NCBI GenBank assembly: GCA_030390025.1
Contig: CM059434.1
Location: 127,286,001 to 127,350,000, forward strand
DNA length: 64,000 nucleotides
DNA from: Squalus acanthias
Taxonomy: Eukaryota
Reading direction: 5' to 3'
Under the pieces are notes generated by a model that made no database searches, had not been told where the DNA came from, and saw only the letters and a program-made list of their open reading frames with translations. The translations under genes and the position numbers were made by a program. This document shows, one piece after another, positions 11,636-53,115 of the stretch; position 1 is the first letter of the stretch, and each line of letters starts with the position of its first letter.

Positions 11636-11884
<249 letters not shown>

Positions 11885-17217: not shown

Positions 17218-17433
<216 letters not shown>

Positions 17434-17782
17434 TGAATTCTACATCTGGCATTGTAACTTTGAGTTCATGGGCTAGCAATCCATAAACTGAGTCTAAGAA
17501 GCGAGACCTTTTAACCTATTTTAATTAGCCGTGTGCTGCGATGTCGTGTGATCCTGACAGTTGGTATATTGTGGAATCTGGTGGGTTCAGTGAAAGGCTT
17601 CTACTTCAATTTATTACAACTTTTATGCCAAACAAATAAGACAGGCACCATCATACAACATAGCTCTTAATTAGAATGATCTGATCATTTTTTTTAGCAC
17701 TAAATTGCCACTTTACTGTGTTGGTTTAAGAATTTAAGGCAGTGAAGTAGGCAGGTTGGTTGTTACAATGCTTTCATATTTG

Positions 17783-18990
17783 AGGACAAAGGTGAACCAG
17801 TGGATGTGGTGTATTTGGATTTCCAGAAGGCATTCGATAAGGTGCCACATAAAAGGTTACTGCTTAAGATAAGAGCTCACGGAATTGGGGGTAATATATT
17901 AGCATGGATAGAGAATTGGCTAACTAACAGAAAGCAGAGAGTCGGGATAAATGGGTCATTTTCTGGTTGTCAAACGGTAACTAGTGGGGTGCCACAGGGA
18001 TCGGTGCTGGGGCCTCAACTATTTACAATCTACATTAATGACTTGGATGAAGGGACCGAGTGTAATGTAGCCAAGTTTGCGGATGATACAAAGATGGGTG
18101 GGAAAGCAAGTTGTGCAGAGGACTCAAAGAATCTGCAAAGGATATAGACAGGCTAAGTGAATGGGCAAACATTTGGCAGTTGGAGTATAATGTGGGAAAG
18201 TGCGAGGTTATACACTTTGGCAGGAAAAATAAAAAAGCAAATTATTATTTAAATGGAGAGATTACAGAATGCTACAGTTCAGAGGGACCTGGGGGTCCTT
18301 GTGCATGAAACACAAAGTTAGCTTGCAGGTACAGCAAGTAATCAAAAAGGCAACTGGAATGTTGGCCTTTATTTCAAAGGGGTTGGAGTATAAAAGCAGG
18401 GAAGTTCTGCTACAACTGTACAGGGTATTGGTGAGACCACACATTGAGTACTGCATACAGTTTTGGTCTCATTTAAAGAAGGATATACTTGCATTGGAGG
18501 CAGTTCAGAGACGATTCACTAGGTTGATTCCTGAGTTGAGGGGGTTGACTTATGAAGAAAGGTTGAGCAGGTTGGGCCTATACTCATTGGAATTTAGAAG
18601 AATGAGAGGTGATCTTACTGAAACATATAAGATACTGAGGGGGCTCGACAAGGTAGATGCAGAGAGGATATTTCCCCTCGTGGGGAAATCTAGAACGCGG
18701 GGGCACAGTTTTAGAATAAAGGGTCGCCCTTTTAGAACTGAAATGAGGAGGAATTTCTTCTGAGGGTCGTAAATCTGTGCAATTCTCTGCCCCAGAGAGC
18801 TGTGGAGGCTGGGTCATTAAATACATTTAAGGTGGAGATAGACACATTATTGCAAGATAAGGGAGTGAAGGGTTATGGGGAGCAGGCAGGGAAGTGGCTT
18901 TGAGCCCAAGATCAGCCATGATATTGAATGGCGGATCAGGCTCGAGGGGCCAAGTGGCCTATTCCTGCTCCTATTTCTTATGTTCTTATT
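17783..18990 (+). mobile_element. 5'-truncated CR1 (HER1-like) LINE: RT domain and 3' tail
   Basis: [50 protein letters not shown]; frameshifts; ttatgttcttat tail. Confidence 0.93.
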
Positions 18991-19134
18991 TCGGTTACTG
19001 TATGTAAGAAATATAAGAATGTGTTATCATATGCTAATAATGGTTACAAACATGATGTCATGGTAACTCAGCTGGCCAGCCTGTGCAGTATTCTAATCTG
19101 CGGAAGCAGCAGCTGATCAATTACATACAATCAG

Positions 19135-19280
19135 AGAATAGTACAGCACAGAAGGAGGCCATTCGGCCCATCGAGTCTGCGCCGGCTTTTTCGAAGAACA
19201 ATCCAGTTAGTCCCGCTCTTTCCCCATAGCCCTGCAATTTTTTTCTCCTTCAAGTATTTATCCAATTCCCTTTTGAAAAG
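19135..19280 (-). mobile_element. CR1 3' end fragment
   Basis: acagcacagaaggaggccattcggcccatcg...caagtatttatccaattccc; same family as 34640-34830. Confidence 0.7.
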
Positions 19281-20524
19281 TAAAATAGGGGGAGGGAAAT
19301 GTGTACAAAAAGAGAGTCATTTAACTGTTTCTTTTCTCTAAGCCTTGACTAAAGGAAGAGTGCCAGCCAGCACTGTCGCCTTAACTGGTCTCGTGGTTGA
19401 TCCACAAACATTTCTCCTGCGATGCTAACATTGGTGGCAACTTGGTTGGGTTTGGTGGGCGAACACACTGCAGGTCAGAGGGAAAAGCAGTCGGGCCAAA
19501 TTTAGTGACTCATGGGCGGTGGCCTGGTCATGACTGACTTATACTAAAGTGAGTATTTTTAGAACATGTGCAGAAATACACAGTAGACTGTGTTTGTCTT
19601 AACACTGGACTGCAGTTTAAATTTGCGAGCCGGAGCATAGTGTTTACTTCCTGTCTCTTTCATTTAGCTTTCAATCTCTTATAGAATGTGGTGTTGCCCT
19701 CATGGACCTTTTAGAACGGTTTGGGTTTTTCCAGATAATCAGTGAGCAGTGCTTGATCTGCCTGAAGGGACCATGCTATTTAACAATCTCAACCAAGGGA
19801 TTAATACTTTTATCCCTTTTTTATATTTTACATTTTCTCTTCTCCTATAACTCACTCTAGGTTGGGGCTCACCAGTTGCTGACCACCTATATTGTACCTC
19901 AGTATCTCATTCTTCATGTGTAGGCTTGGACAGTGATTGCTGACAGACTATTCAGCCATGGTGCTCTGATGTCCGCTCGTTGCCCAACCATGCAAACCTT
20001 TTCTACAGGAATTGCTTAGCTACAAGTGGGAACGCTCACTTTTTTTCCTTCTTCCTCCACCTCATCCCAGGTTTGCGAAACCCAATTTTAGTGCCCCACC
20101 AGCTATTTTTTTGGTATTTGGGGTTGAACTCGCAGCAGTCTGTAACCAGGGTCATACTCTGTATAGCTGTGCCCAGTTGTTGTGCTGTTCTCTTTTTTTG
20201 ACAACTGTAATTGCCCTGAAATTTACCATGCCCAACGTTCTGTCAGTTTGCAAATTCTTCACGAAAGGTTTGCATACAGTCAAATCTGTAGACTTGGTTA
20301 GATGCCTCTTCTATAAAATTAATTTAAGTTGTGTTATTTAACCTGGCTACTTGGGGCTGGACGGGAGCTATCAATGCCTTGTACGCTCCTGATAACTGCA
20401 AAATCTGGCTTGATATAAAGTCGGAGTAAAACACCCATTGGAAGCTGGATTTGGAGGAGCGCAAAAGAAGAGGGCTAGTACCAGTGTGATGCATTAAACG
20501 CTTGGATGTGTTTATTTAAACAAA

Positions 20525-20932
20525 TTAGGGCTGTATTCCTTAGAATTTAGAAGGTTAAGGGTTGATTTGATCGAAGTTTTCAACATATTAAGGGGAACAG
20601 ATGGGGTCGATAGAGAGAAACTATTTCCGCTGGTTGGGGATTCTAGGACTGGGGCGTAGTCTAAAACTTAGAACCAGCCCTTTCAGGTGTGAAATTAGGA
20701 AACACTTCTACACACACACAGGGTGGTAGAAGTTTGGAACTCTCTTCCACAAACGGCAATTGATACTAGATCGATAATTTTAAATCTGAGATTGATAGCT
20801 TTTTGTTAACCAAAGGTATTAAGGGATATGGGCCAAAGGTGGGGAAATGGAGTTAGGTCGCAGATCAGCCATGATCTCATTGAATGGCGGAACGGGCTCA
20901 AGGAGTTTAATGGCCCATTCCTGTTCTTATGG
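20525..20932 (+). mobile_element. CR1 3' end fragment
   Basis: Similar to 18570-18990, including gatcagccatgatctcattgaatggcgg. Confidence 0.8.
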
Positions 20933-22126
20933 TTATCACTGAAACTCACAAAACAATTCCCTTAACATTCTGATTGTATTTGAGAGTTAACCTCTGCCCT
21001 TGCATTATTTGTAACGTTCTTTTGAGTACTGATGGAATGAAGAAACAATAACTGCTGTTAGAAAACAAATGGAAAAATTCTATGTCAAATAACTTGCTGA
21101 TGTTTCCCATGAATGAATGACTGACTCTTCGCTGTTCTTGCCTTAAGATGTAAATAAACAACTCGGAGCCATTTCCTTATTTACAGACTGAGATGAGAAT
21201 CACTTGCTGCTTTGAAATTGGGACAAAGAGCTAATGTTCTGATACGGGTGTTAATGCTGCAAAGAAATACAGAGAACTTGTTCAGCTGTTCCACACTAAA
21301 AGCAGGACAGATTCAATGCCCCAGTCTTTCAGATGCTGACTAACCTGTTGTGCAATTGAGGCATTTTCTGTTTCTGTTCCTACTTTTCCATTGGTTCATT
21401 TGTACTGCAGTTAGACTTTTTTTTGCTTATTTACAGAACATTGGCCTGCACACTCTATTTTAATTAGTTAACCTCACGAACAGCAACCTATTCAGTGACG
21501 TATTTTGGTTACCCCAAAGTACTGAATTCAAGTTCTTCGTCCTTTTTTACAAATCATCCTACACTAACTCTTCTACTTCCTCGAGCTAATTTCCCAGCCC
21601 TCCTATCTTCTAACTTCCCTCCTGTGCATTTCCCCTTCTCTCTACTCCATTCCCCCGCCCCCAACTGTGGGGGTATTTCACTAAACCTTCCACTGTAGGG
21701 CCGTGCATTGGGAGCTGGCAGCTCTAGCAAAGCACCTAACTCAATATAAAAGAAATGAAAGAAGCAATATACATCCACACCCCAGATGACATGCCAAATG
21801 CCCCAAAATTATTGAATAACTAAGCTGAACAAGTACAACTACCATTACTAGCTGTTGCAAAATAGTTTGGATACAGTCTGAATTTGAAAGTGATGTGATA
21901 AGTGTAGCATGCTTGGGAGGAACAGGTGATGCTGTTCCCAAAGTGTTCCACTACTCGGGGTTTCTTTTGAAGTGGGGGCGTGTCCATGCGGGGAGTGGGG
22001 TGCACTTCAGACAAGGCAAACACACACTACTTGCATGGATTTCTCGGCAGTTTGTTCATTTTGTTCTCTGGATGTGGACAACACATGCGAGGTTGTATTT
22101 GTTGCAAATCCCGAGGTGACTTTTTA

Positions 22127-22575
22127 TTTATTCATTCATTCACTGGATGTGGGCAAGGCCGGCATTTATTGCCTATCCCTAATTACCCTTGAGAAAGTGG
22201 TGGTGAGCCGCCGCCTTCCGTGTGGTGTAGGTACTTGGTATACTTCTTTGTAGAAGTTTGGTGCAACTGAGTGGCTTGCTAGGCCATTTCAGAGGGCAGT
22301 TAAGAGTCGGTGGATCTGGAGTCAGTTATGGGCCAGACCAGGTAAGGACGGCAGATTTCCTTCCCTAAAAGACATTAGTGAACCAGATGGGTTTTTACAA
22401 CAATCCGGTAGTTTCATGGTCCCCATTACTGATGGCTTTTTATTCCAGATTTATTTAATCAACTGAATTTAAATTCCCCAGCAGCCGAGGTGGGATTTGA
22501 ATTTGCGTCTCCGGATCGTTAGTCCAGGCTTTTGGATTACTAGTCCAGTAACATAACTACTATGCTCCCGTACCC
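22127..22575 (-). mobile_element. tRNA-derived SINE sharing its 3' tail with the LINE at 1803-4232
   Basis: Head is the reverse complement of 10835-10980; tail gcatttattgcctatccctaattaccctt matches the LINE end at 4160-4220 in reverse. Confidence 0.75.
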
Positions 22576-22804
22576 ACATGAGGGCATGAAGAGTGAACCA
22601 CGCTATGTGGGACTGGAGTCACATGTAGGCCAGACTGGGAGGGATGGCAAAATACCTTCCCTGAAGGACGTTTTTTGGCATTATTTTAAAAATGGCTTAT
22701 ACAGCAGATGTTATGTTGCCACTTGCAAAGATTAGTCTTGGAAAGATTGTATGCTTCTAGCAACTCCAATTGTAAATGGAACAGACTTGCTAAGTCGCTT
22801 ATTA

Positions 22805-23200
22805 AAAGAACTTAAATTTATGTAGCACCTTTATAACATCTCAAGGTCCCAAAGCACCTTGGATATTATGAATTACTTTGAAATGCAGTGGCTGTTTTGC
22901 AGGCGAAAGCAGCAACCATGCAACGAAATGAAAGATTCATCTGAGTTTGTGGTGTTGGTTGGTCACCGGGAAAAATCCTTGCTCTTCAAATTGTGATGTG
23001 GGATCTTTAACAGCCACTTAAACCAGCGAACGATACCGTAATTAAATGTCTTGTGCAAAGGATGGTGTCTTTGACAGTACTGGACTCTGAGTACTGCATT
23101 GAAGTGTTGCTCTAGATTATGTGCTCAAGCCCTAGAGTGAGCCTCAACCCGAAATTTCCCGATTCTGGAGAGATAGCGTTACCAGCTGAGTCAAGGTGAC
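22805..23200 (-). mobile_element. Decayed Deu-domain SINE, nearly full length
   Basis: Collinear with 268-693. Confidence 0.62.
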
Positions 23201-23623
23201 ACATCAGGAGTGACGCAGCAGGGATTATCAGTAGCTATAAAGAGAAAAAAACATTAACTTTTCAGGTATAACTAAGATTACAGAACCCTCTATTAGGGTT
23301 GAGCAAAACGGGCAGGAGCGCAAGAGTACAAGAAGAAAAAACCACCAGGGATGCTGACGAGTAATTGGGTTCAATAGGCAGCAAGCAGCTTGTGTGAAAA
23401 GCTGGGAATCGGGCTATTTAACTCCTTAACTCCTCCTGACAGGAGTCAGTATTACTGACCCTTTGTCCTCTCTCCTTTCCCCTGGTCCCTGACTGCCCAG
23501 TAATGTTTTGTTCAGCCCTATTCAGGGGCTCTCTTATCTTTTGGTTTCCAGTTGTGACAAAGGACACGCACCCAATAACTTAATCTGTTCTTTCGCTTCT
23601 TGGATGCTGATGGGCCTGCTGAG

Positions 23624-23738
23624 CAGTGTTGCCATGAAGCTGCGCAGCGCTTTGAAGATCCCACGCAGTTGGCTCACGGCTTTTAAATAAAATTTTGAAT
23701 GGGCTGCGCGGCCCCCCAAAAAATTAGAGGGAACATTG
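23624..23738. mobile_element. hAT-type MITE
   Basis: TIR cagtgttgcc...gggaacattg; 8-bp TSD ctgctgag/cagctgag. Confidence 0.75.
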
Positions 23739-25749
23739 CAGCTGAGTATTTTCTGTTTGTTCATTTGATTTGTTCATCACCAGTGGCGGTTGCTCACTTT
23801 GGTTTAAAATGTGACCAATATAAAACATAGCCCAATATATTTAATCACAATTGCAGCCTGTGTTACTCTTGCTGTTCATAACATGCACTGTTAACACTTC
23901 TCCGATATTACTGCTCTGAATAAGACCACATAAGTCACTCCTTGCACTTGTGCAAATCTGTTGCTCCCAATGCATAATTCTATTTAAAGGAAGTCATCAG
24001 CTCCCCGTTTTCAGAATTGGTAGGGCCATTTATTTCTTGTGGCAGTCTTTAAACTTTCACGCTCAGTGTTGAGTTATTATGAATTGCCTACACGACTTAA
24101 AAGCACTAAATTTTAATTGATCCACAAAACATATCAACTGTACTCTTTAATTGATGTACATTTACTGTAGATAGGATGTTGTTCAAATGTTAGAAAATTA
24201 GTACACTGGATAATGATCTCACCACAGCCTTACATTATCTGAAAAAAACTTGAGGGATTTTGTGCTGCAGCACTGGTCTTGGGTTGATAATATACCGGTC
24301 TTGCTGCTGAAAATTTCTACTAAGCAGAAGTGGGACTGCCAAGTCCCTGGCGTCAGCTCTCTGCTGCTCCAGGAACAAGGCTATTTGTATTTGTAACTGA
24401 AACCTAAGCAAGAGAATTGCAGATTTGCTGTGGCCTGCAGTTGTTATACATTAAAGCACCGTGGTTGCTTTCACTGTTCTTCATCCACAGAACCCAAAGT
24501 GGTGCCTGGCTGATGGAAGGAGAAGGGAACAATATACAGCTGAATGAATGAATGTTTTCTGTGGAAGTGTCCTTTAGTTGAAATGTAACTTGCAGTGAAC
24601 AAGTAATATAAAGTAACTTAAGATCGTTTATGATATGAGATTTGAGAGATAATACTTTCTCCCTTGTCAACTCCCTGCTGCTACATCCTCCTTCCCCCGC
24701 ATCTCCAAGCAGCTGCCAGGTTGAGCTGCATTCAACAATCCAGCTCCAGTGTGAGATACCAACAAACAAATGAAAAATCAGACTCGGTGGTACTCTTGAA
24801 TTATTTAAAGACACCCTGAGAATGCATGTAATAAGTCGACTCAGTTGCTTGGAAGTCTGCAGTTATTGAGTTGGCTTTCCTCCTGTTCCTGCATCAGGCC
24901 GGCACCTTACAAGCTACCTTCATATTCCTTGCAAGCAGCTTTCGACCTTGCACATTTTTGCAGCGGTGAGCGCTGCCGTAGCCATTCTATGTGCGGGTAA
25001 ACAAATTTCTGCAAGGGTAGTAATTCGGGAAGGTTTTAAAAGCATTTTTACGGTAGTATTTAATGCTTATAGACGCAAAGAATTTTGTTGCCACGGGCTT
25101 CTCCACAACAACCCCTCTGAGGATTTAGAAGTTCTTGCCTGGACTTGTTAAACCTGGTAAGACACGATTGAAAACTTAAAGAGCAAGACCTTTTGCAAAT
25201 AGCACCTGTTATTATAATAGCAAATAACAGGTTCAGTAACTTGTGGCTCATGTTTAGACCGTCTCACGAAGAACTGTAACACCAGGGAAGTGTTGGGTGT
25301 TATTTATGAACATTAAGGGTAACACGGGTTGCAGCCTTTGTTCAAATATGTTGGGATATGTTTTCTATTTAACAGTGGCGTGCAGAAAAATGGTCGCATT
25401 TTAAACCAAAATGAGTGACACTTGCTCTGAGTGACGCTTGGCAAGTCTATTCCATTCACAACAGCACTTGGCTGCAAGGATTCAAAAACAGCACCTTTTC
25501 AGGGCTGAGGAATTGCTAGGTGCCATGGTAGCATCTGATGTAAAAGCCATTTTTACTAATGCAAGAATTTGTCCAAATGTTTCATGTAGTTGAAGGGTAG
25601 AAATATGTTCCTGTGACAAATATATAAAACATGCAGTAATTTTAAAAAAAAACAGTGGAACTTAGCTGTATTGTTTTTATAATCCCACTTCCAAAATGTG
25701 AGTGATTTTATGTACATATCGGCAGTCTTTCCAAATGCTTGAAGTGGGA

Positions 25750-26965
25750 GGGTCACTTGTATGTACACTCTGCTGTATCTGGAAATGAAGGAACGCTCCT
25801 GGAAGCCAGTGTACACTGAATTACATCGCACTGAATTGTTTCCAATGCGCTGCCTCCACAGGCCACCTTCCATGGCACTGCTCTCATGATTGCAGTCTTG
25901 CCTCTCGCACCGAAGGCCTGCAGTGTTTTCTTCTCCCAGCCTAGGACCCTCTCTCTACATGCTGCCCCTCTGACATCTTCTGAAAGCATGGAGTTAACTT
26001 TTGCACATGTGCCAAATGACTCTCAGCTTTGCCTATACTGATTCCATCGTTGTTGCTACCCTCTACAACTCATAACATTAAGACCTGGATGGGTTGTAGC
26101 TTCTTCCAGCTTAATATCGGTTGAAGCCAACCCTCTGGCTCCTGCCAGCATCTCTGTGCCACTGGGTGGGGATGGACTCCATCAAGCTCTCTGGCTACCA
26201 GGCATAGTGCCGAGTTGTGTCGCCTTGGCTGAACTTAGTTCCTCACATGAAGTCTTTTACCAAGAACTGCTTTTTACTCACCTCTGAAACGTTGCCTGCC
26301 TCCATCCCCAAAACTCTCGCCACCTAATCCATGCCTTTATTCCCTCAAGGCTTGACATCTCCAGTTGTCTCTTTGCTGGCCTCTCGCTTCTACTTTCCAT
26401 AATCTAGCGATTATCCACAACATAGTGGCCATGTAATTTCCTGCAGAGTCCTGTGCACTCATCATTCCATCTTCGGCAAGCTCCAGTAGCCTACCATACT
26501 CCTCTCTCTCCGTCAGTGTTCCCGCTGAGCTGCGCACAGGCATCTGCAAGGTCCCACGTAGGCCGCTCACCGGCTTTCACATTGTAAATACCGTGCATGC
26601 ACAGAAATTTAAAGCAACAGCGCATTAAAAGAAACAGGCCGCGCAGAACAAAGCACAACTTACAAGGAACATTGCTCATTGTACCTCTGCAATCTCCAGC
26701 CATAGGTCCCCATGTGTACTATCTCCTCTTTGAACAACCGATTACTTACTCCTTCTGTTCCACTATGGGCAGCCATTCTTTTACCAATATGTTCCTGTTT
26801 GGAACTCAAAATCTCTTTGCCCTGCTGCCATCTTGCTTGCCTTCAAAAGTCTGCCTAAAACTCTTCCCATTGACTGTTATTTTACCTCCACCTCTTTCTT
26901 CTCTCCTGCTTGCCAGTCACCTGTAAAGTATTCGCAGACCTCCTGGACATGATAAATGTTCCAGA
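25750..26965 (+). mobile_element. Highly decayed L2 LINE with a nested hAT MITE (26514-26674)
   Basis: Pyrimidine-rich L2-like motifs (ctaatccatgcctttattccctcaaggcttgac); MITE cagtgttccc...ggaacattg. Confidence 0.55.
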
Positions 26966-29900
26966 AATCTTAGTTGTTTGAAGCATGTGGTTTACAAATG
27001 GACATATATTGATGAACCCGACCTTCCCCTTTTCACCTTCAACTCGTAGTCCAGAGTTGGTGTTGGGGCAAACTCCACACCCCCAACTTGGTTTAGACAT
27101 GGTGGACATCACACTCGGAGTAGTATACCGTTCATTCTCCTTCTCTAATCAGTACAAGTTGAAGTCGGATTCCATTCAAACTAAGGTAAGCAGAGATTAC
27201 CTACACTGCTCAGCAAGAGTACAATTGCTCTCCCATCCGTAGAGGATATCCAGCAGTTTCACTTACTGTGCGCTGTGAAGAAGCTCCATTAATGTGGAAC
27301 TGATTTTGAATCTTTACAGGAGCACCAGGTGGCTTAAGGAAGCAAAGCAGTACAGGAAAATTAGGAAACTGCAAAACTGAAACATTCCAGACAGTGATCC
27401 CAACCCGTGTGCTTTACATGACATCACTGTATACTTGTCTTCCATGGTGTCTTTGTCCCTACATTATCCTGTTCCATTTTAAACCCCGTCATTACGATAT
27501 ATTTTACGCATATTATACAACTAAAATGCTCTTCAAATGTTTACATTGCTGTTGGTAGAGCGTTCTGTTTTCTGCTGCAACTGCATCAAAACTATATTGC
27601 CCATAAAATGTTGATTAAGAAGCATCTATGAATTACCAGCAATAAATCTTCACATACCACTTACTGCGGTCTGCGGAGTTCGCTCAACTCCTGAGACTCT
27701 TACCCTTGTATGCACAAATTCAAATATGGAATGAACAGTCATTTACTTAGTTTGTTGAGGTAACCATTGGAAAATAGGTGACTTGGATATTAGGACCCCA
27801 GCAGTCTTCTTGTGCTCCTGGCAACAGCCAAAGTCAAATTTGAGTTTTTGTCCTTGTTAAAGTTGCTGCTAACTGCACCCTGTTTAGCTACCCAATAAGA
27901 TTGAGTTTAACTTTACACTATCAGCTACGGCTATATTTTCAAAAACGCAAATTACTTTTGGGTAGTCTAAAGAATGGCCTCTTTCAACACTTTTTCTCAA
28001 AGTTCTTGCTCCAGAGTTTGAAAGGGTGTGTATTGGGCATAATCTACATCTACTATAACTCGCCACATTGTTGAAGGTGCACCTGAAGATTTATACTTGT
28101 AACAACAATAAAAGCTTTTTCAAGACCTTGCTGTGCAATGATGAACTTGTACCAGTCAATGGGCTTTACTTTTGCCATGTAGGAATTTAAGAACCGGTTT
28201 AGGCCACTTGGCCCATTAAACCTGCATTGCCATTTTGTGAGCCATGGCAGCTCGCTAATCCAATTCCCCACCCTTTCTCAATTTCCATTAATAAACATCG
28301 TCTCCAGCTCAGTCTCTGTTTTGATTTTAATCAGCTCAGTTGATTCTGCAGCAGTATATTCCACGTTCACTGTGGAAAAACATTTTCCTGAACTGACTCA
28401 TAACTGTCTTGGCTCAAATTCTGAGATCATGCCCCCTTGTTCTGCCACAAGTAAGACCCATTCCCTATCTACCCTGTGAATTTCCATCATTTTATACACG
28501 TTAACCCCTTAACCACCTCCATGTCTGGGGAATATAACCCCAAGTTTTCCAGTCTCTCATGGCTAATGTGCTTTATCCCAAATAGCAACCTGGTGAATCA
28601 TTGCCACGGCCATTTTCAACCCTCTGTGTATGAATTCCTCTGGCTGTGTGTTTCATACCTGTCTGATGCTGGTTCCCATGTAAGGCAAATGCTTGGTTCA
28701 TTTCTGACTGGAGGGAGAATTTCTATTTCTCTTGTGTGCTTCCAGGAAAAAGAAGCCCTCGTTCGTGACACTGGCATGTGACCAGGTGTTCACGCTGACT
28801 TTGTGTTTGGATAGTCCATTGTCAGTATTAATGCAAGTTGCTGGTATCCTGAGTGAACCATTTGAGGTACCAATATGAACAGCATTTGATGCCTCAATTA
28901 TTCTTTCTAGAACTGCTTAGTTTTCTGTAAAACAGAAAATAGAGAAATCTAAATGAAGGGCTAAGGCCCATAGTGCAGAACACTACCAAGATTAAAAAGA
29001 GAAAGGTATAAAATATATAAATTTTAGAATTAGTTGCTAAGTGACACTAAACGTAGGTTTTACAACCTTACGCACTGTAGGAAAATATTGAGCTAGATGA
29101 GAAGTTTCACGGGTATATATACCTGACACCATGATGGATGCTCTCTAAACCTTTATATATGCAGGTTTCTGAACTCTGCTCTCTTTGTCCACTAAATCTG
29201 TCTATAATAATTTTCTGGTTCGCTTTATAGCTATTGATAAAAGTTCTTGGCTCACAGACCAATTGTATGGTTTTGGAGTGACTGCTCCTACAATGTCTCT
29301 CGGTGGTACCTGGCCAAATTGTAGTGCTCAGTTTCCTTAATTCGGAATACATTTTTGCAACTAAGCGGATGTTAATTTGTGCGGCTGCTGTTTGCCACTC
29401 CATCCTCCCCTTCCCTCCTGAAAGCCGTGAGTAGTACTGGTTCCAACAGAGCCAATGTGAGCCTTGAGTGTGTTGGCAGACTATTTCACACACAGGCATT
29501 GCCGCCAAATCTAATCCGGTTCACTCACACAGCCTTCCAGCAAGATTCAAAGGATAGTCATCAGGAGTAACTCCCTTCTCCCAAAACCCAGCAATATCTC
29601 CTGTTCTGGCAGGGCTGAGACCAGGAATCTCCTGGAGGTTTCTTATTTTGTATGGGTCAGTAAGCTGTAGTTTCTTTTTATATTCGTACTGTTTTTATTT
29701 GGATTTCAAGAGACCAGTGTCCCTGCACCAGCTCCTGGTGCTTGCATTGCTAAATCTGATGGTGTTCTATATCAAATTAGCCCAAATAAATATTCTTTGC
29801 ATAATTGTTTTCTATTATTTTTCAAGAAAAATTCTGTTTGGCATGCATTGAATTATAAAGCAGTTAAACTCATCAATATAACCATTTCATTTAATTCTCT

Positions 29901-30154
29901 TCTGTTAAATTAGCTAACCTGCACTCCTAGAACAAACACTTACGTCATCCAAGAAAGTTTCCCAGCACGGGTGATCCATTGCATAGCAAACATTGTATGG
30001 GATACAGTTCCATGTACCAAGCTGAAGGAACAGTATGATCTGTAGAGCCAGGGTTATTACAACCTGTACCTTGTGGGTTATTAAATCTGCCAAGTTTTGC
30101 TCCTCAGGAGTGATGTTGATTTAAAAAAAACACATACACACCTCGGTTTTACAG

Positions 30155-31165
30155 CAATATGCACTTATACAATGCCTTTAAAGTTAAAAAAATGTTCCAG
30201 CCAAAGAGCAAGATATTCTGAAGGGTGGCTAAAAGCTTGGTTGAAGATGTAGGCTTTATGAAGTGTCTTTAGAAAAGAGGGAGGTTGATAGTTGGAGGGG
30301 TTTAGGAAGAGAATTTGAGTGGGGGCTGAAGGCACAGCTGCCAATAGTGGGATGAAGGTACACAAGAGGCCAGAGTCAGAAGAACAGATTTCAGGGAGCC
30401 TTGTAGCAGTGGAGGAGCTTGCAGAGAAAGGGAAGGGTGGGGCCATGGAGGGATTTTAACACAAGGATGAAAATGTTTACATTTGACTCTTTGGGAAGCA
30501 GGCAGCCAATTGTAAGTCAGCAAAGATAGAGGTGATGGACAAGTCGGAATTGGTGCTGGATACTACACGGGTAGAGTTTTGGGCAAGCTGGAGTTTACAG
30601 GGAGTGGAGGTTTGGAGGCTGGCTGGGAGAGCATTGGAATAATAGTCTGGAGGTGAGAAAAGTATGAATGAGGTTTTCAGTATGAGATGGGGCAGAGGTC
30701 GGCCATTTTATGGAAGTAGGTGATCTCTTTGACAGAGAGGATATGCAGTCAGAAATTCCACTCATGGTCAAATAGGACACAGAGGTTGTGAAGAGCGAGA
30801 TGGTGGTAGGGAAATAGAGTTGGTGGTGAAGGCACAGAAGTTGTGTCTGGGGAACTAAGGAAGATTGTTTTGGTCTTCCCAATGTTTATCTGGGGGATAA
30901 AAAATGCACCTCAGACAAGTAGTCTGACAGCGGTGAAGGTGGTGGAGAAGTGGAGCTTGACGTCCTCAACGTACGTGGACACTGACCCTGTGTTTGTGGA
31001 TTATGTTGCCAAGATGCAGCATGTAGATGAGGAAGGGGGCTAAGGATGGATCTTGGACAGACTTCCTCGGTGATGACCTGCGTAAGGAGACGCCGTTGCT
31101 TGAGATGCTACAGTTACACTCGGATAGGCGAGAGTGGAACCAAGCAAGGGCCATTCTACTGAGCG
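30155..31165 (-). mobile_element. L2 LINE fragment, continuing at 33321-33560
   Basis: Minus-strand ALAWFHS.LS, FLIYML.LG.II.KH.V, ENLIHTFLTSRL; upstream part ESFQSGF...LLIFLDLS at 33321-33504. Confidence 0.75.
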
Positions 31166-31423
31166 GTTTCCTCTCCCCCGCTATTCCTCCTTCATATCAA
31201 ATCATCTCCAATTAGCATCGAGCCCTATCTACTCTTTTGGTGATTACTCCAGTTTACGTTCATTAACTTCCTTCAGAGCCCACTACCTTCATTCCCCTCA
31301 GTACAACGGTTGGAACGTGGTAACTTGCTCTCCACGTATTGATCAATGCTAAGCCAGTTACAGTATTCAAAAAAATGAGAAGTCGCACAACACCAGGTTA
31401 TAGTCCAACAGATTTATTTAAAA

Positions 31424-31461
31424 TTACAAGCTTTCGGAGCTGTCGCCCCTTCGTCAGGCAA
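31424..31461 (-). ncRNA. Minimal hammerhead ribozyme motif, left-arm copy
   Basis: Exact reverse complement of 33130-33167. Confidence 0.82.
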
Positions 31462-31699
31462 AGGTACAGTGAGTGAATCTACAACATTACACCGTATATA
31501 AACACAGACACTGCAGAGATACAATCTTTCAGGGAAGGTGTCCTTACATCAAAGACATACCAGAGCACAGCCAAGACAATGAGATGTGTCACAGGGGGTC
31601 CAACGTGTCAAATCCTGCTGTCTGCAGTTGTTTTTTTTGGGGGTTTGCTTTTTTTAAAGTTTTTTTTTAAAAACTGGAAAGACAGACAACGATGTCGAG

Positions 31700-32186
31700 T
31701 CACGTTCTGTAGCGTGACATGAACCCGATATCCCTATTGAAGCCATCCTCATGGGTGCGGAACTTGGCTATCAGTTTCTGCTCGATGATTTTGCGTTGTC
31801 GTGTGTCTCGAAGGCCGCCTTGGAGAACGCTAACCCGCAGATCCGAGGCTGAATGTCCTTGACTGCTGAAGTGTTCCCCGACTGGGAGGTAGCAATCCTG
31901 CCTGGCGATTGTTGCGCGGTGTCCGTTCATACGTTGTCTCAGTGTCTGCATGGTCTCGCCGATGTACCATGCTCTGGGGCATCCTTTCCTGCAACGTATC
32001 AGGTAGACAACGTTGGCCGAGTCACATGAGTATGTACCATGTACCTGGTGGGTAGTGTCCTCACGTGTGATGACGGTATCTGTGTTCATGATCTGGCATG
32101 TCTTGCAGAGGTTGCCGTGGCAGGGTTGTGTGGTGTCGTGGTCGCTGTTCTCCTGACAGCTGGGTAATTTGCTGCGAACGATGGTA
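31700..32186 (-). pseudogene. Penelope GIY-YIG endonuclease remnant (left arm)
   Basis: ORF 31700..32089 (-) nearly identical to the right-arm protein (QDCY/QYCC, V/A, F/L differences). Confidence 0.9.
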
Positions 32187-32399
32187 CTTTGAGGTTAGGC
32201 GGCTGCTTGAAGGCGAGTAGTGGAGGCGTGGGGATGGCCTTAGCGAGGTGTTCGTCGTCATCGATGACATGTTGAAGGCTGCGAAGAAAGGCGCCATGTT
32301 CTTCGCAGCCTTCAACATGTCATCGATGACGACGAACACCTTGCTAAGGCCATCCCCACGCCTCCACTACTCGCCTTCAAGCAGCCGCCTAACCTCAAG

Positions 32400-32886
32400 T
32401 ACCATCGTTCGCAGCAAATTACCCAGCTGTCAGGAGAACAGCGACCACGACACCACACAACCCTGCCACGGCAACCTCTGCAAGACATGCCAGATCATGA
32501 ACACAGATACCGTCATCACACGTGAGGACACTACCCACCAGGTACATGGTACATACTCATGTGACTCGGCCAACGTTGTCTACCTGATACGTTGCAGGAA
32601 AGGATGCCCCAGAGCATGGTACATCGGCGAGACCATGCAGACACTGAGACAACGTATGAACGGACACCGCGCAACAATCGCCAGGCAGTATTGTTGCCTC
32701 CCAGTCGGGGAACACTTCAGCAGTCAAGGACATTCAGCCTCGGATCTGCGGGTTAGCGCTCTCCAAGGCGGCCTTCGAGACACACGACAACGCAAAATCA
32801 TCGAACAGAAACTGATAGCCAAGTTCCGCACCCATGAGGATGGCCTCAATAGGGATATCGGGTTCATGTCACGCTACAGAACGTGA
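32400..32886 (+). pseudogene. Penelope Cys-rich linker plus GIY-YIG endonuclease remnant (right arm)
   Basis: PCHGNLCKTC...SC linker, NVVYLIRC...WYIGET...RQRMNGHR...EHF...E...GLN motifs; no RT domain; frameshifted relative to the upstream PPLLAFKQPPNLK frame. Confidence 0.9.
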
Positions 32887-33129
32887 CTCGACATCGTTGT
32901 CTGTCTTTCCAGTTTTTTTAAAAAAAACACTTAAAAAAAAAACAAACCCCAAAAAAAACACAACTGCAGACAGCAGGATTTGACACGTTGGACCCCCTGT
33001 GACACATCTCATTGTCTTGGCTGTGCTCTGGTATGTCTTTGATGTAAGGACACCTTCCCTGAAAGATTGTATCTCTGCAGTGTCTATGTTTATATACGGT
33101 GTAATGTTGTAGATTCACTCATTGTACCT

Positions 33130-33167
33130 TTGCCTGACGAAGGGGCGACAGCTCCGAAAGCTTGTAA
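33130..33167 (+). ncRNA. Minimal type I hammerhead ribozyme motif in the Penelope terminal repeat
   Basis: UUGC-CUGACGA-A-GGGGC gaca GCUCC-GAA-AGCU-U-GUAA: stem I, core, stem II and palindromic AGCU in place of helix III. Confidence 0.82.
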
Positions 33168-33884
33168 TTTTAAATAAATCTGTTGGACTATAACCTGGTG
33201 TTGTGCGACTTCTCATTTTTGTCCACCCCAGTCCAACACCGGCATCTCCGCATCATGACCAGTATTCAAAAAGGTAGTGGATAATTACAAATACAAAAGG
33301 ATATGGGGAGACAGCGGAAATAGAAGAGAGGTCAAGAAAGATGAGGAGAGATAATGCACGGTGGTCGCAGTGTGTGGTGTCCGTGACTTTGTTTCGGGCT
33401 CTTTTGGTGCTGTGGGAGGAGTGGAAACCTGATTGGAAGGATTCAAATGGCGTTGTGGGAGGGATGGGCATGGATCCAGGAAGCGGGAACATTTTCAAGG
33501 ACATTGAAGAGGAAAAGGAGGTTTGAGATGGGGTTGAGGGTGGGTTTATTGAGGGAGTGGTGATGTATTGTTAATAGGCTTAGTGGCAATTCTTTATGGC
33601 ATAAACTGATCACTATTTGTATTGATCAGTCACTTATAACAATCAAAATCTGCTGTGCAGAGGTCTTTCGATGGGTAGTTTTATTTTCCGCCGGTGCTCA
33701 CGGGTTTCCCCAAACACTGGCCTTGCAGCGGGCAACAAACCAAATGTAAAGTTGCCAGGACTTTATAAAATCAGTGACTTGGAAAACATAAACATAGAAC
33801 TTATTAGCCATGAGAAGGCCATTGGACCCTCCTTATCTGCACTGAATGAGCAGTGCTCTCTGGAGGCAATTTTACAGTCCCATT

Positions 33885-34143
33885 TTTCCACTGTCTCCCC
33901 ATATCCTTTTGTATTTATAATTATCCACTACCTTTTTGAATACTGTAACTGGCTTAGCATTGATCAATACGTGGAGATCAAGTTACCACGTTCCAACTGT
34001 TGTACTGAGGGGAATTAAGGTAGTGGGCACTGAAGGAAGTTAATGAACGTAAACTGGAGTAATCGCCAAAAGAGTAGATAGGGCTCGATGCTAATTGGAG
34101 GAGATAATTTGATATTAAGGAGGAATAGCGGGGGAGAGGAAAC
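33885..34143. repeat. Uninterrupted donor copy of the inverted duplication; contains the empty Penelope target site
   Basis: ccactacctttttgaatactgtaactgg is the reverse complement of ccagttacagtattcaaaaaggtagtgg, with a single TSD copy. Confidence 0.9.
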
Positions 34144-34639
34144 AGGGACTAGCGAACTCCTGACATAATGAAAAAAGAGTTAAGTGATCAGCTAACGATT
34201 AAAGCACAGCAATTTGGTAGGGCACTGCACAGCCATGACCATACCCATAAACATACTTCGACATATGGTTTAGACAAAACTTTCAAGATGCTGGATAATT
34301 TGAGAGTTTTATAACTTTATAAAGGGTAATAGGATTTGAAGGGTTAGGGTGAGCACAAGTCAGTTTCAAGTTGAGAAAAGTTGGACTGGAAAAGAGATCA
34401 CAAAATTGAATTTTTCCATCACGCTAAGAGACAAAGTTGTTGACAATGGGAGAGATACCATCATGGCCAGAAAGAGGATGATCTGACAGATCTGGCAAAG
34501 AAAAAAGTTGATGCCTGCAATAATAGCACACAGTGCAAGGAGGTTCTTTAACAAGATTCGGTGAGCCATAACGGTTGGGGTTCTTATTGGAAAATCGACA
34601 TCTAAACCATCAGAATGGGAGAAGAGTGGAAAGCAGGAT

Positions 34640-34830
34640 ATAGAATCATAGAATGATACAGCACAGAAGGACACCATTCGGCCCCTCACGCCTGTGCCAG
34701 CTCTTTGGAAGAGCTATCCAATTCGTCCCACTCCCCAGAGCCCTGCAGATGTTTCCCCTTCAAGTATTTATCCAATTTTCTTTTGAAAGTTACTGCTTCC
34801 ACCACCCTTTCAGGCAGTGCATTCCAGATC
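34640..34830 (-). mobile_element. CR1 3' end fragment
   Basis: atagaatcatagaatgatacagcacagaagg...caggcagtgcattccagatc. Confidence 0.72.
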
Positions 34831-35269
34831 ATGAGAGTCAATTTTAACAAGAGACCAGAAGAAGCGATTGCCAGAAGGGCAGGAAGACAGCAGTAAACTT
34901 GTCATTAGCAGCCCCAATGGTGGATATTTAATGAGTTCTGATTGGGAAGCAAACTTAACATTGCAGAAAAGTATGGAAGCTGTTTTGCAGTTGCGAGCAA
35001 TTAGTTCTCAGACTGACCTCATTTTAAGCCCGGTTTTGCTGTTCCCAATTGTGCATGTTCTTGTTAGTTTCTCCCACGTTGTTGATCTTTTTGTAATCTG
35101 CATATAAAAGGTGGTAGATTTTTGTGTGTGGTGAATCCTCAATATAATGAACAACTTGAGAACTTTTGGGAATAATACTGAAACACTGTTTGATCAAACA
35201 AGCTCACTGCAGTTTGATTGATCTCAACCCCCATCTATCTACTTTATCACTATGTCCCAATCCCTTTTA

Positions 35270-35622
35270 CAGGAAACTCTTTCGTATCCGGCACCAACGG
35301 GACCGGGATGGTGCCGGTTGATTAAAAATTCCGGATAACGGAGAGGTATATCTACCGAGGCTATTTTTAACAAACAAAAATAAAAAAATCAAGAAATGTG
35401 CAGTATGATTGGGTACTCCCCTACAGAATGTTGTTAAATGGATGGTGGAAGATGCTTGATTAAGTACAGTAATGCCAGTTGAGGGTAATCCATAACTCTT
35501 TAATTACTTAACAGTAAAACAAAACTTATAAACGACTGTATACTGTAGTTTTCGGAGTATGAATTCTGCCGGTTATTAGAGAATTCCGGATATTTAGGTG
35601 CCGTTTAAACGAGAGTTTCCTG
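35270..35622. mobile_element. Tc1/mariner-Tigger-type MITE
   Basis: TA|caggaaactct...agagtttcctg|TA; subterminal repeated (t)ccgg(at) motifs. Confidence 0.8.
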
Positions 35623-37556
35623 TACTTCCCAGAATATCATCTGGTTAGCTCTTAAACACATTTACACTATTTACTTCGATGGCTTTCCCTGGTAACTTGT
35701 TCCATATGTCTTTTTAAACCTTTAAAATCTTGTGTTCTGCTCCTTCAAACAGGAAAACCACTGTTCAGTGGATTGTATTGTGTGCCCAAATATTTTTCAG
35801 GGAGATATTGGCAATGCACTCATACATTTTATGGTGAAGTGTGCTGCTCACCATGCTACTTGTAAGTGGTTGACATCTGCTGAGTGTTCAAACCCGTGGT
35901 TGCTGTTTATCTGTTGACTATCTAGTGACTATTCTTCTTGGGTAAAGGGAGGTTAAGTTGGGTCGTTTTCAGATCAAATCAGCTCATGGGTGATGCATCT
36001 AAAGATGGAAAACTGGAATCAAATGATAGACTTGGTAATCCAGTACCAGAGCCAGGCAGGTCAAGGACCCTTTGCCTTATTGAACGATTTGCCTCCATCA
36101 TGTTTGTCCATTACTAGGTACTGTTGATGACTAACCAGCAGCCTGGCTCATTAATGGGATATGCAGGGGTAGACCTACCACTAGGACCTGAAATTCTTCC
36201 CACTCAGCATCACACATCGCTGCCCTAATGGGTAAAGAAAATGGGAAGACAGAAGTAAGCTCATTGCTTTGTGCTGGTAAAATGTTGTGCTTAGCTGGTT
36301 AAACTCCAGTACCCCTGCGCACACTTGGGTGTCCTTAAACCTTGACTGATGCCAACCTGCATCTAAACCCTCCAGACTTAAGTAAGTGGAATGCCTCCCA
36401 ATGTAAAGGGAGGGGGGAGGACGAGAGAGAACTACGCATTCTATACTGGGCAAACAGAATTTCTATTTTTGTGATTTCTGAATTGCTTGGTTTGGAAACT
36501 CTGAAGCATGGGATATATTTTTGCAGTTGTTGGCTACCTCATTGATGAAAAAAATCTTTTATGCTATTATCCTGAATTTTAAGTTGCATCACCTGCTATT
36601 TGCCGAGATGAGGAAGGCTGTTGGCCCCATTTTAGCTCCTCTGTCGAGAAAAATCTATCCTTTTCCCTACCCTCAATGATGGTGATTTCAGGGGTTTTGC
36701 CTCCATTACCTTAACGAGAAAGTTTAATTCTTCTAAACTGAAAAGCCCAAGTATCTTCAGTCTTTTGTTCAAAACTCAATCCTCTGATGCTAAGGCTCAA
36801 TCTCATGGGTATTGTATTCCCTGCGTTATCATCGTGGCTTCAATGTCTTCTTCAGCAGAGCTGGACACCGTGCTTAAGGTGTGGTTTTACCAGAGCACTA
36901 TTCAGTTTAATCATCTCTTTACTGTTTTGGTTAGATAGCTCAGCACTCTATTTGCCTTGTTGATTGCTGCTCTGATTTGATTGGACGCACTGCTTCATAA
37001 ACTTAACAAAAATTCAATTAGATTCCCGTAAAGTACTTTTCCAAAGAAACTTAAGCCCAACTGAGACTTTCCCAATAATGTAGATAGATCCTTGCTGCTG
37101 TCCCAAAGTAACACAAGATCTGAAGAATGGAGATGTTGGCTTGTGAGAGTACTTCACAAAAAGCTTCGAAATTTCATTTTATGGAAAGCATTATGAAGTA
37201 TGAAAAGTGGGTCTTTTTCCCCAGCTGCTTTTATCAGCATTTCATTACAAAATAATTAGACTTCAACATGCAGCAAAACATTGTAAACACTAGTGCCTCA
37301 ATATAAGTCCCAACACTTTTTGAGAGTATATTGAAAGCCACTTGTCAGCTGAGCAATCTAATGAGTACAGTATATTTTTGTTATGAGATATTTATTTTGG
37401 TATTTTAATGTGTTGCTTATAAATGAATGATTTTCATTGATCATACCTAAGGATAGAATTTTTATTTGAAAAGACTGATACAATATGAGTGCAATAGAAA
37501 CAGAAATCGATGGAGACACTCATCGGGTCAGGCAGCATCTGTTGCGAGAGCACAAA

Positions 37557-37596
37557 TCAGTTGACGTTTCAGTTATAAACCCTTCCTCAGAACTGA
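37557..37596 (-). ncRNA. Minimal hammerhead motif of a second, probably Penelope-derived, repeat family
   Basis: Minus strand reads UCAGUU-CUGAGGA-A-GGGUU uau AACU-GAA-ACGU-C-AACUGA; 6-bp stem I and ACGU palindrome; inside a repeat at ~37495-37630. Confidence 0.68.
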
Positions 37597-37695
37597 AACA
37601 TGTTACACAGATGAACAGCATTTGAAAAGGAACAGAACAAGTGGAAGGGGTACACAATGCTCTCTCTTTTTCCCACTGTCATTCTCACGTGTGTG

Positions 37696-37700
<5 letters not shown>

Positions 37701-37740
<40 letters not shown>
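37701..37740. repeat. (AC)20 microsatellite
   Basis: Direct read. Confidence 0.97.
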
Positions 37741-37742
<2 letters not shown>

Positions 37743-38146
37743 AAGCACCAACCCACTTGTTCCAAGAAATGCCAGTGCACCCATCCTACATTTCCATCAC
37801 TTGTGGCCCGTGAGAAAATGTGAGCTATAGTTTGGGTCTGAAGTTTTTCAAGTCACAATTAAGGCCATCTGCAGTATTTGCTTTTTGTGTAGTCTGAGTG
37901 CATTTGGTTTGCAAAGAACTGTAGAGGATAGGGCTGATCAGTATTGTCTAGCATTTGAGATGTAAAAATAGGTTTATGCTTCTCTTCACTTGATTAAAGT
38001 TACTGAAAGAAAATTGGAATCTTGTGCCGCATGTTAATATTTTTACTCGACTTTGAGTTAACCACAGGATGGATGTAGGTTTCAGAGACCATCCAAAAAT
38101 GGTGTCACTGAAAACATTTTACAACTTTTCTAAATATTTGGTTTGA

Positions 38147-38329
<183 letters not shown>

Positions 38330-51469: not shown

Positions 51470-52676
51470 GTTGTAACCTGAGCAGATATAACTGGGCTTG
51501 TTGCTGCAGTTCTTCAGTTTAGTGCTGGAGAAGTTTTACAAAATGAATGTGTGGCAAGGTTATCTGTTATATTTTGATGGTGTACTCTTGCTGTTTGGCT
51601 TGTGGCATGTATCTTTTGTTTCTGTTTTACTTTTTCTCCTGGATTTGTTTGCCTTATCCAATGCTCTTATACTGCTGCTGTTAGTTTAGGGTCTGTCATT
51701 TTCGTATTAATAGGCATGGCGTTTAGCCATCCCACTCTCTGCAGCCACTCGCTAATCTATGGTGGTTATAGAGTAGCTTCACTCTCTTGCTGAAGACTTG
51801 GGGTATGCTCTGCCTCAGCTGGGTGTGTGCCGCTCCCCTCCTCTCAACCTTCCGTTCAGTAGTGGGAACCAGACAGTGGCTTACCGCTGCACTATTTAGA
51901 GTGTATTAGACCAGTGTGTGGGGTCCAGCATGGTTGTAGAGTGTGACTGGTTTGTGCAGAGATGGTGCTTTCTGTGCAAGACTGGTTTCTGTGTATTTGG
52001 AAGTAGTTATTAACGTGTCTGTCCATTTTCCCCATTTATCAACCCAGTGGTCTTTCAGCTGAGGTAGCACATTAAGACGTCATTTGCTATTTATGGTCCT
52101 TTTTGACTAATGGCAGAATTAATAGCTGTTTGAAAGGCTGCATTTACAGTAGGGAAATAGAACACATTTGAAGTTGCGTCTCAGTTAAATGACTGATGTA
52201 CTGGGAGATATTAGCTCTGGAATTCACAATGTGTCTTTAGACTAGGTTCAGATTGTTAGAGTAATTTTGGAGTGAATTAACTACCACTATGCTGCATTTC
52301 TGTGTGAGGTTTTGCTTTCTGATTGACCCCTCTGCTACCCCATGCACCATTTTCTTGGGGCAGGGCGGATGACTGAACAGCTTGCATTCAAAATTCTGTC
52401 AGTGCCACTCTATAATCAACCGTCAGGAGATGCGCAGTGGTGATCTGGGATGACTCGTCCACAGATTTCCTTTCTTCCATCCCACTCCCTTGAAGCAGCC
52501 AGCCATCGCTTGGTGCCTCCTTTCCCTGACTACCTCCTACAGATTGGGAACTTGCCACATGTGTGCCGGCACTCGGGGCTGCTGCTGGGATTTTGTGTTG
52601 ATGTCCATTCCTTGAATCAGCCCTCCATCCCTCCATTTACTGTGACCTACTAATGTCTGTGCTTTCTTTTTTGTTG

Positions 52677-52873
52677 AGTCGCACAACACCAGGTTATAGT
52701 CCAACAGCTTTATTTGAAATCACAAGCTTTCGGAGCGGCTGCTCCTTCGTCAGGTGAATGAGCAGCAGCTCTGAAAGCTTGTGATTTCAAATAAAGCTGT
52801 TGGACTATAACCTGGTGTTGTGCGACTTCTCACTTTTGTCCACCCCAGTCCAACACCGGCATCTCCGCATCAT
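52677..52873. mobile_element. Miniature inverted Penelope terminal-repeat insertion with TSD
   Basis: Left arm from 52677 pairs with 52760-52827; same tail (gtccaccccagtccaacaccggcatctccgcatcat) as 33221-33256; tcttttttgttg at 52665-52676 and 52874-52885. Confidence 0.9.
52720..52757 (-). ncRNA. Minimal hammerhead ribozyme motif in the mini-Penelope
   Basis: Minus strand reads UCAC-CUGACGA-A-GGAGC agcc GCUCC-GAA-AGCU-U-GUGA. Confidence 0.82.
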
Positions 52874-53115
52874 TCTTTTTTGTTGCATTTGTACTGCCTT
52901 TAAAAGGATTTCTTGTTCCCCCCCCCCCCCCCTCCTTTTTAAGAAGCAGGGTATGGAGCTGTGGTTGAGCATTGTTACAGAATGGAATTAAGGCTAGTTA
53001 GCCTAATAGGATTCCATTTATTATGAGCTTGATATTATACATTTTTACTACTGTCATTTATTCCAGTTGCTTGACTTTATGCATTTGTAACTAATTTGTT
53101 ACTTTTATTCTTAAG

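Follow-up and report, generated by a model that had tools for sequence, protein, structure and literature searches.

Does a hammerhead ribozyme motif that lies on the sense strand of an intron, together with its own exact complement, protect the host transcript from itself, or is it what remains of an ordinary transposon insertion? This question is raised by positions 33130-33167 of a 64,000-nt stretch of Squalus acanthias DNA (the window). An initial annotation proposed that the inverted insertion carrying both motifs is self-neutralising, and for this reason tolerated inside MKLN1. Our analysis leads to a different answer. The motif is real, and most likely it is a passive relic in an ordinary, recently inserted and dead copy of a Penelope-like element (PLE). 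The gene and its strand are as first proposed, since an exon at 11669-11881 on the plus strand matches muskelin in the PDB (8ttq_A, E 1.2e-55) and Muskelin_N exons lie upstream on the same strand. Further MKLN1 exons were placed with the use of short peptide motifs; the host intron (17420..38180, plus strand; 20,761 nt) lies between the exons 17290-17419 and 38181-38328.

All parts of a minimal type I hammerhead were found in order at 33130..33167 on the plus strand, that is, the sense strand of MKLN1, within the pLTR of the right arm of the insertion. As read from the sequence, these are the 5' strand of stem I (33130-33, 4 nt), the CUGACGA core (33134-40), an extra A before stem II (33141), stem II (33142-55; 5 bp, GGGGC/GCUCC, with one G-U pair and a 4-nt loop), the GAA core (33156-58), a palindromic AGCU (33159-62), U at N17 (33163) and the 3' strand of stem I (33164-67, with one G-U pair), all on the plus strand, and the predicted cut falls after U33163. 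The core pattern CUGANGA with GAAA..NUH is represented by CUGACGA, GAAA (33156-59) and CUU (33161-63), and the closing pair G10.1-C11.1 of stem II by G33142-C33155, with A33141 ahead of it; this cleavage triplet follows the general NUH rule (PMC3138052). The AATAAA hexamer reported downstream of the motif, a candidate poly(A) signal, is present at 33173..33178 on the plus strand and is followed by a GU-rich stretch (~33198-33206). An identical motif on the minus strand of the left arm (31424..31461) is the exact reverse complement of 33130-33167, and would be antisense in the MKLN1 pre-mRNA. The description of the ribozyme as intact thus holds for its letters, the core and both stems, and we limit it to them.

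Folding of the single motif and covariance models say less. In the lowest-energy fold of the 38-mer, stem II and three of the four stem I pairs are formed; this folding is no better than that of shuffled sequences (z -0.68), and in a 71-nt context another structure than the hammerhead has the lowest energy. A search with hammerhead models had been recommended in the initial annotation. No Rfam family reached its gathering score anywhere in the window; within 33050-33260, none of the hammerhead families appeared even at E<=10. Such a miss would be expected, as the motif is without helix III. The palindromic AGCU, a helix III remnant of the kind found in minimal hammerheads, allows a dimer, and in a co-fold of two copies pairing is predicted through 33158-33163, which agrees with the original classification as a type I minimal hammerhead with a dimer-type palindrome.

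We regard comparison among related copies as better evidence for the motif than either folding or Rfam. The set comprised 46 distinct variants from 154 occurrences, some of them at overlapping loci; the variant counts are not independent events, because the search pattern required the core and the variants share descent. Eight of the nine stem positions are paired in 91-100% of the variants and the outermost position of stem I in 78%; within stem I the range is 78-96% per position. A compensatory swap is seen at one position of stem I, where 22 variants have U-A and 18 have C-G. Loop II has 3 to 8 nt, depending on the variant; the extra A ahead of stem II is present in 46/46 variants, and both the standard closing pair and the AGCU palindrome are present in 45/46. 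Position 17 is U in 39 variants and C in 7. At 33158-33163 this U lengthens the palindrome to six bases (AAGCUU), and A14 could pair with U17 in the dimer, which is predicted to hinder cleavage; U17 is nevertheless the norm of the family (39/46). The exact 38-mer occurs in 702 copies genome-wide (356 forward, 346 reverse), and a reversed control 38-mer in none; together with the stems kept in relatives, these numbers indicate that the motif is not a product of chance. Another hammerhead-like motif (CUGAGGA...GAAAC), which does not belong to this family, lies on the minus strand of the window at ~37550-37590 and is probably the terminal repeat of another PLE.

Minimal hammerheads were described in the pLTRs of metazoan PLEs, including fish Xena, Poseidon and Neptune (Cervera and de la Pena 2014, PMC4209133). 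With respect to the motifs presented in that paper, the one in MKLN1 differs in its helix II, which has 5 bp vs 7-8 bp in the Schistosoma examples, and in its cleavage triplet, CUU. A literature search for Penelope, shark and hammerhead ribozyme gave nothing beyond one review. PLE hammerheads reportedly cleave as dimers, as is said to have been found by Lunse et al.

The motif is part of a 1,886-bp insertion (31374-33259), in which two head-to-head arms are joined at their truncated 5' ends, with the 3' ends directed outward. The left arm (31374..32288, minus strand) is tail-less and consists of a pLTR and the end of the GIY-YIG-region ORF (164 codons open). The right arm (32292..33259, plus strand) is tailed and, compared with the left one, lacks 1 nt near 32396. 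Both arms are 5'-truncated PLE sequences, and the 3 nt between them (32289..32291) have no match in the full-length family copy. The tail of ~40 nt (33221..33259, plus strand), present on the right arm only, holds the ATG (33255) that opens the ORF of longer copies. The insertion is bounded by two identical 13-bp target-site duplications (31361..31373 and 33260..33272, plus strand). Penelope ancestry, suggested at the outset, is borne out by the pLTR, the inverted 5'-truncated copy, the one-sided tail, the target-site duplication and the RT-ORF end in the arms, and it is by the hammerhead-bearing pLTR, inverted truncated copy, tail at one end and target-site duplication that the insertion belongs among EN+ PLEs.

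The ORF ends in both arms are nearly identical to the C-terminus of the 814-aa ORF of a full-length family copy (L227 2118-4559). This reading frame of 814 codons is uninterrupted (RVT_1, E 1e-8), and the presence in L227 of an RT together with the C-terminal domain is consistent with recent activity of the family. The motifs VVYLI..WYIGET and CxxC/H..H in the C-terminus, read by eye, are what we take to be the GIY-YIG region. This assignment was made by motif because Pfam did not call it (0 families in the 164-aa arm ORF), and no match to the 814-aa ORF was found among PDB sequences, hence no solved relative.

The head-to-head layout with a target-site duplication and a one-sided tail is already known for this class of elements. 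Craig et al. (PMC8557442) regard as typical of PLEs that a 5'-truncated copy lies inverted and that one end bears a tail of 30-40 bp; an inverted copy, a tail and target-site duplications were described for Adineta elements (PMC3846280), inverted ends for Penelope of Drosophila virilis (PMC2377424), and pairs of hammerheads on opposite strands, 100-700 bp apart, for other PLEs (PMC4209133). The MKLN1 insertion shares with the EN+ elements described in these sources the head-to-head arms, the tail at one end holding the ORF start, the target-site duplication and 5' truncation. It differs in a target-site duplication of 13 bp, vs 8-10 bp in the Adineta examples, and in that both arms are cut at nearly one point in the endonuclease-proximal ORF, with no partial tandem.

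The boundary of the insertion is fixed by an older local inverted duplicate of the target (33885..34143, minus strand), which matches 31166-31373 and 33273-33320 and preserves the target uninterrupted. The two arms of the insertion differ by 12 substitutions and 6 gap columns in 923, most of the substitutions being private to one arm, whereas 9 substitutions and 3 gap columns in 259 separate the copies of the local duplication; thus, the PLE insertion is the younger of the two. The local duplication itself is 259 bp long, with a 564-bp spacer, and the PLE landed in its left arm. No other close copy of the 259-bp duplicate was found among 40 scored genome candidates, and its opposite-strand joint was seen in sequencing runs of organisms A, B and C.

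Long-read data are known to contain long, near-perfect palindromes as artefacts, and the insertion might in principle have been made in assembly from a fold-back chimeric read. The substitutions between the arms, most of them private to one, argue against it, and so do the target-site duplication and one-sided tail that bound the insertion, the continuity of the flanks with the older duplicate, and the recurrence of the same layout across chromosomes; we consider an artefact extremely improbable. Among the pieces listed for runs X1 and X2 (organism A), no contig bridging either junction was found. A 168-nt contig from run X6 (organism B) agrees with 31247-31373, after which its remaining 41 letters depart from the element; its depth is 23.9 vs ~15 for single-copy neighbours, and a depth of 46.3 at 33289-33315 fits a continuation of this contig into the right flank. 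The depth suggests an empty site in organism B, although the local duplicate gives the same letters. Neither X6 nor X7 covers 33100-33126, which carries no evidential weight.

A young insertion with a ~915-bp nearly perfect hairpin predicted in the pre-mRNA could also be regarded as a co-opted regulatory element, in which the hairpin or the ribozyme has been domesticated to tune MKLN1 through editing, small RNAs or splicing. Long near-perfect duplexes are typical substrates of editing. Such a role is, however, very unlikely in view of the youth of the insertion (12 substitutions and 6 gap columns between the arms, identical target-site duplications), its being one among hundreds of copies, and the empty site suggested by depth in organism B.

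The remaining question is whether the antisense arm is there because it masks the sense arm. According to the initial annotation, the arm with 31424-31461 is transcribed first, and the order of the arms on the plus-strand gene, minus and then plus, agrees with this. The further claim that the hairpin masks both the ribozyme and the poly(A) signal is supported as a prediction, as 33130-33200 pairs with the left arm in the modelled fold of the whole insertion. In this predicted hairpin 97% of bases are paired, and the 38-nt duplex has an energy of -78.7 kcal/mol vs -8.9 for the hammerhead fold. During transcription of MKLN1 the left arm would be made first, and the right arm would then zip into the ~915-bp hairpin, burying the motif and AATAAA. 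With the minus-then-plus geometry, whichever direction transcription takes, the sense ribozyme is preceded by an antisense arm. The first 100 places listed include 20 pairs of neighbours no more than 5 kb apart; all 20 have the minus-then-plus order and none is tandem. The antisense-first order follows from geometry, and therefore says nothing special about MKLN1.

If the insertion were self-neutralising, its sense arm would cleave or terminate the MKLN1 pre-mRNA, most plausibly via AATAAA, the antisense arm would prevent this, and inverted copies would survive in introns from which unpaired sense copies are lost. The strong predicted masking favours such a mechanism, as do the GU- and U-rich stretches downstream of AATAAA, the lack of mutations in both motifs, and the position of the left arm, which covers the hexamer and the GU-rich stretch. 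A preprint also describes depletion of related retrozymes from Xenopus introns, and reports that eight of nine tested dimers were uncleaved (10.64898/2026.07.22.740005). On the other hand, minimal PLE hammerheads showed undetectable cleavage as monomers, and low cleavage as dimers, in the in vitro assays of PMC4209133. Among the matches listed in a literature search on intronic hammerheads, antisense and pre-mRNA, nothing concerned masking in PLEs.

The orientation of related insertions in genes bears directly on this mechanism. With a 134-nt pLTR-end query we searched 1,529,808 bases in ten genes (MKLN1, four plexins and five myosins; a Sec8_C search for another long gene found none). Gene strand and spans were inferred from Pfam exon hits, and nested genes on the opposite strand may be included. 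Of the 47 insertions found, 31 were inverted; the solo copies numbered 7 in sense and 9 in antisense orientation, and were mostly of sister subfamilies with different stems rather than the exact 38-mer, with subfamilies mixed. When solos with an intact core and AATAAA were counted, 6 were sense and 6 antisense (95% interval of the sense share 0.21-0.79). The first 30 matches listed from the chromosome sample represent 24 insertions, 17 inverted and 7 without a partner within ~6 kb on the 5' side. The inverted share was hence 66% in genes (31/47) vs 71% in the chromosome sample (17/24), two samples that differ in subfamily mix, the second being taken without regard to genic status. In this small sample of 47 insertions, neither depletion of unpaired sense copies nor enrichment of inverted copies in genes was found.

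MKLN1 itself carries other copies. An unpaired sense pLTR with an intact core, both stems, AATAAA and a tail lies in intron 1 (G000:C10:127220624-127220753, L067), and no antisense partner of it was found within 10 kb or in MKLN1. A dimer in cis between this copy and the motif ~98 kb downstream was rejected as implausible. A second unpaired sense pLTR in an MKLN1 intron has a substituted core (127268739-127268819, L072). A sister PLE subfamily left a 196-bp inverted stub (52664-52885), with a duplicated T-rich target, in one of the later introns of MKLN1; the stub has a full hammerhead on the antisense strand only, its sense arm being without the CUGA core.

The proposal that masking makes the insertion tolerated is thus not supported, given the equal numbers of intact solos and the 7 vs 9 split of all solos, an inverted form that is the usual outcome for the family and shows no excess in genes, and the unmasked sense copy in intron 1. 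The orientation test, with its small sample, excludes only strong selection against unmasked copies. We therefore regard self-neutralisation of the MKLN1 insertion as improbable. Slightly better, though still slim, is the chance of a broader variant, in which self-masking across the class lowers the cost of intronic insertion and aids spread in expressed genes, with a moderate effect that would be invisible in 12-16 solos. Masking is most likely a side effect, predicted from the fold, of the geometry of insertion. It is very probable that the locus holds a dead, passive head-to-head PLE copy that would not cut the MKLN1 pre-mRNA even if unmasked, and that its antisense arm arose in normal insertion and not by selection for masking.

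By analogy with published relatives, a single copy of the motif is probably inactive; it would need a partner copy with which to pair via AGCU, and probably a protein of the element. The latter would be in line with Poseidon PAc of Anolis, whose hammerhead was cleaved only with protein, and at whose cleavage site no ends were seen in RNA-seq (Frangieh et al. 2024, PMC11167929). A requirement for a dimer or protein would matter for the RNA of the source element, not for the dead copy in MKLN1.

The most likely origin of such a passive copy is as follows. The element endonuclease would nick both strands 13 bp apart, and each nick would prime reverse transcription, which would start from the tail end (33259) in one case and ~40 nt further in (~33217-33220) in the other; both cDNAs would end early and be joined at their truncated ends. 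For PAc, cutting and extension of both strands was described, two RT start sites defining the tail (PMC11167929). The shark insertion has in common with PAc two element ends one tail-length apart, an AT-rich target and a hammerhead in the pLTR; the ORF of PAc starts at stem II (PMC11167929), whereas the ATG of the MKLN1 family lies 92 nt past the predicted cut. Loose contig ends cluster at 33213-33220 and 33256-33257 in four of four sequencing runs. Of 34 rows of inverted pairs, 31 have the tail on one arm and not the other, and 27 have a 7-14-nt target-site duplication; the rows take in two duplicated places and one spurious pairing.

The second arm of the MKLN1 insertion may alternatively have been made by fold-back copying of the first, and its arms do stop within 7 nt of each other. 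As a general route this meets a difficulty, since in 7 of 23 inverted pairs the arm without a tail exceeds the tailed one by more than 15 nt (two pairs with tails on both arms or on neither were left out), a result that fold-back copying of the tailed arm cannot give. With its 7-nt difference, the MKLN1 copy may come either from one broken RNA or from fold-back copying. Arms stopping <=15 nt apart were seen in three of 15 long-armed pairs (both arms >250 nt), at 32288-32292, L002 and L014, which may point to one RNA as the template of both cDNAs.

As found, the insertion is of little consequence, being one more dead copy of an abundant PLE family. If masking were shown to be needed, the inverted layout that has long been noted for Penelope insertions could be explained by fitness, and the locus would be a natural example in which a ribozyme and a poly(A) signal are controlled co-transcriptionally by antisense RNA. 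The family is in addition a convenient dataset on how the inverted repeats of PLEs form.
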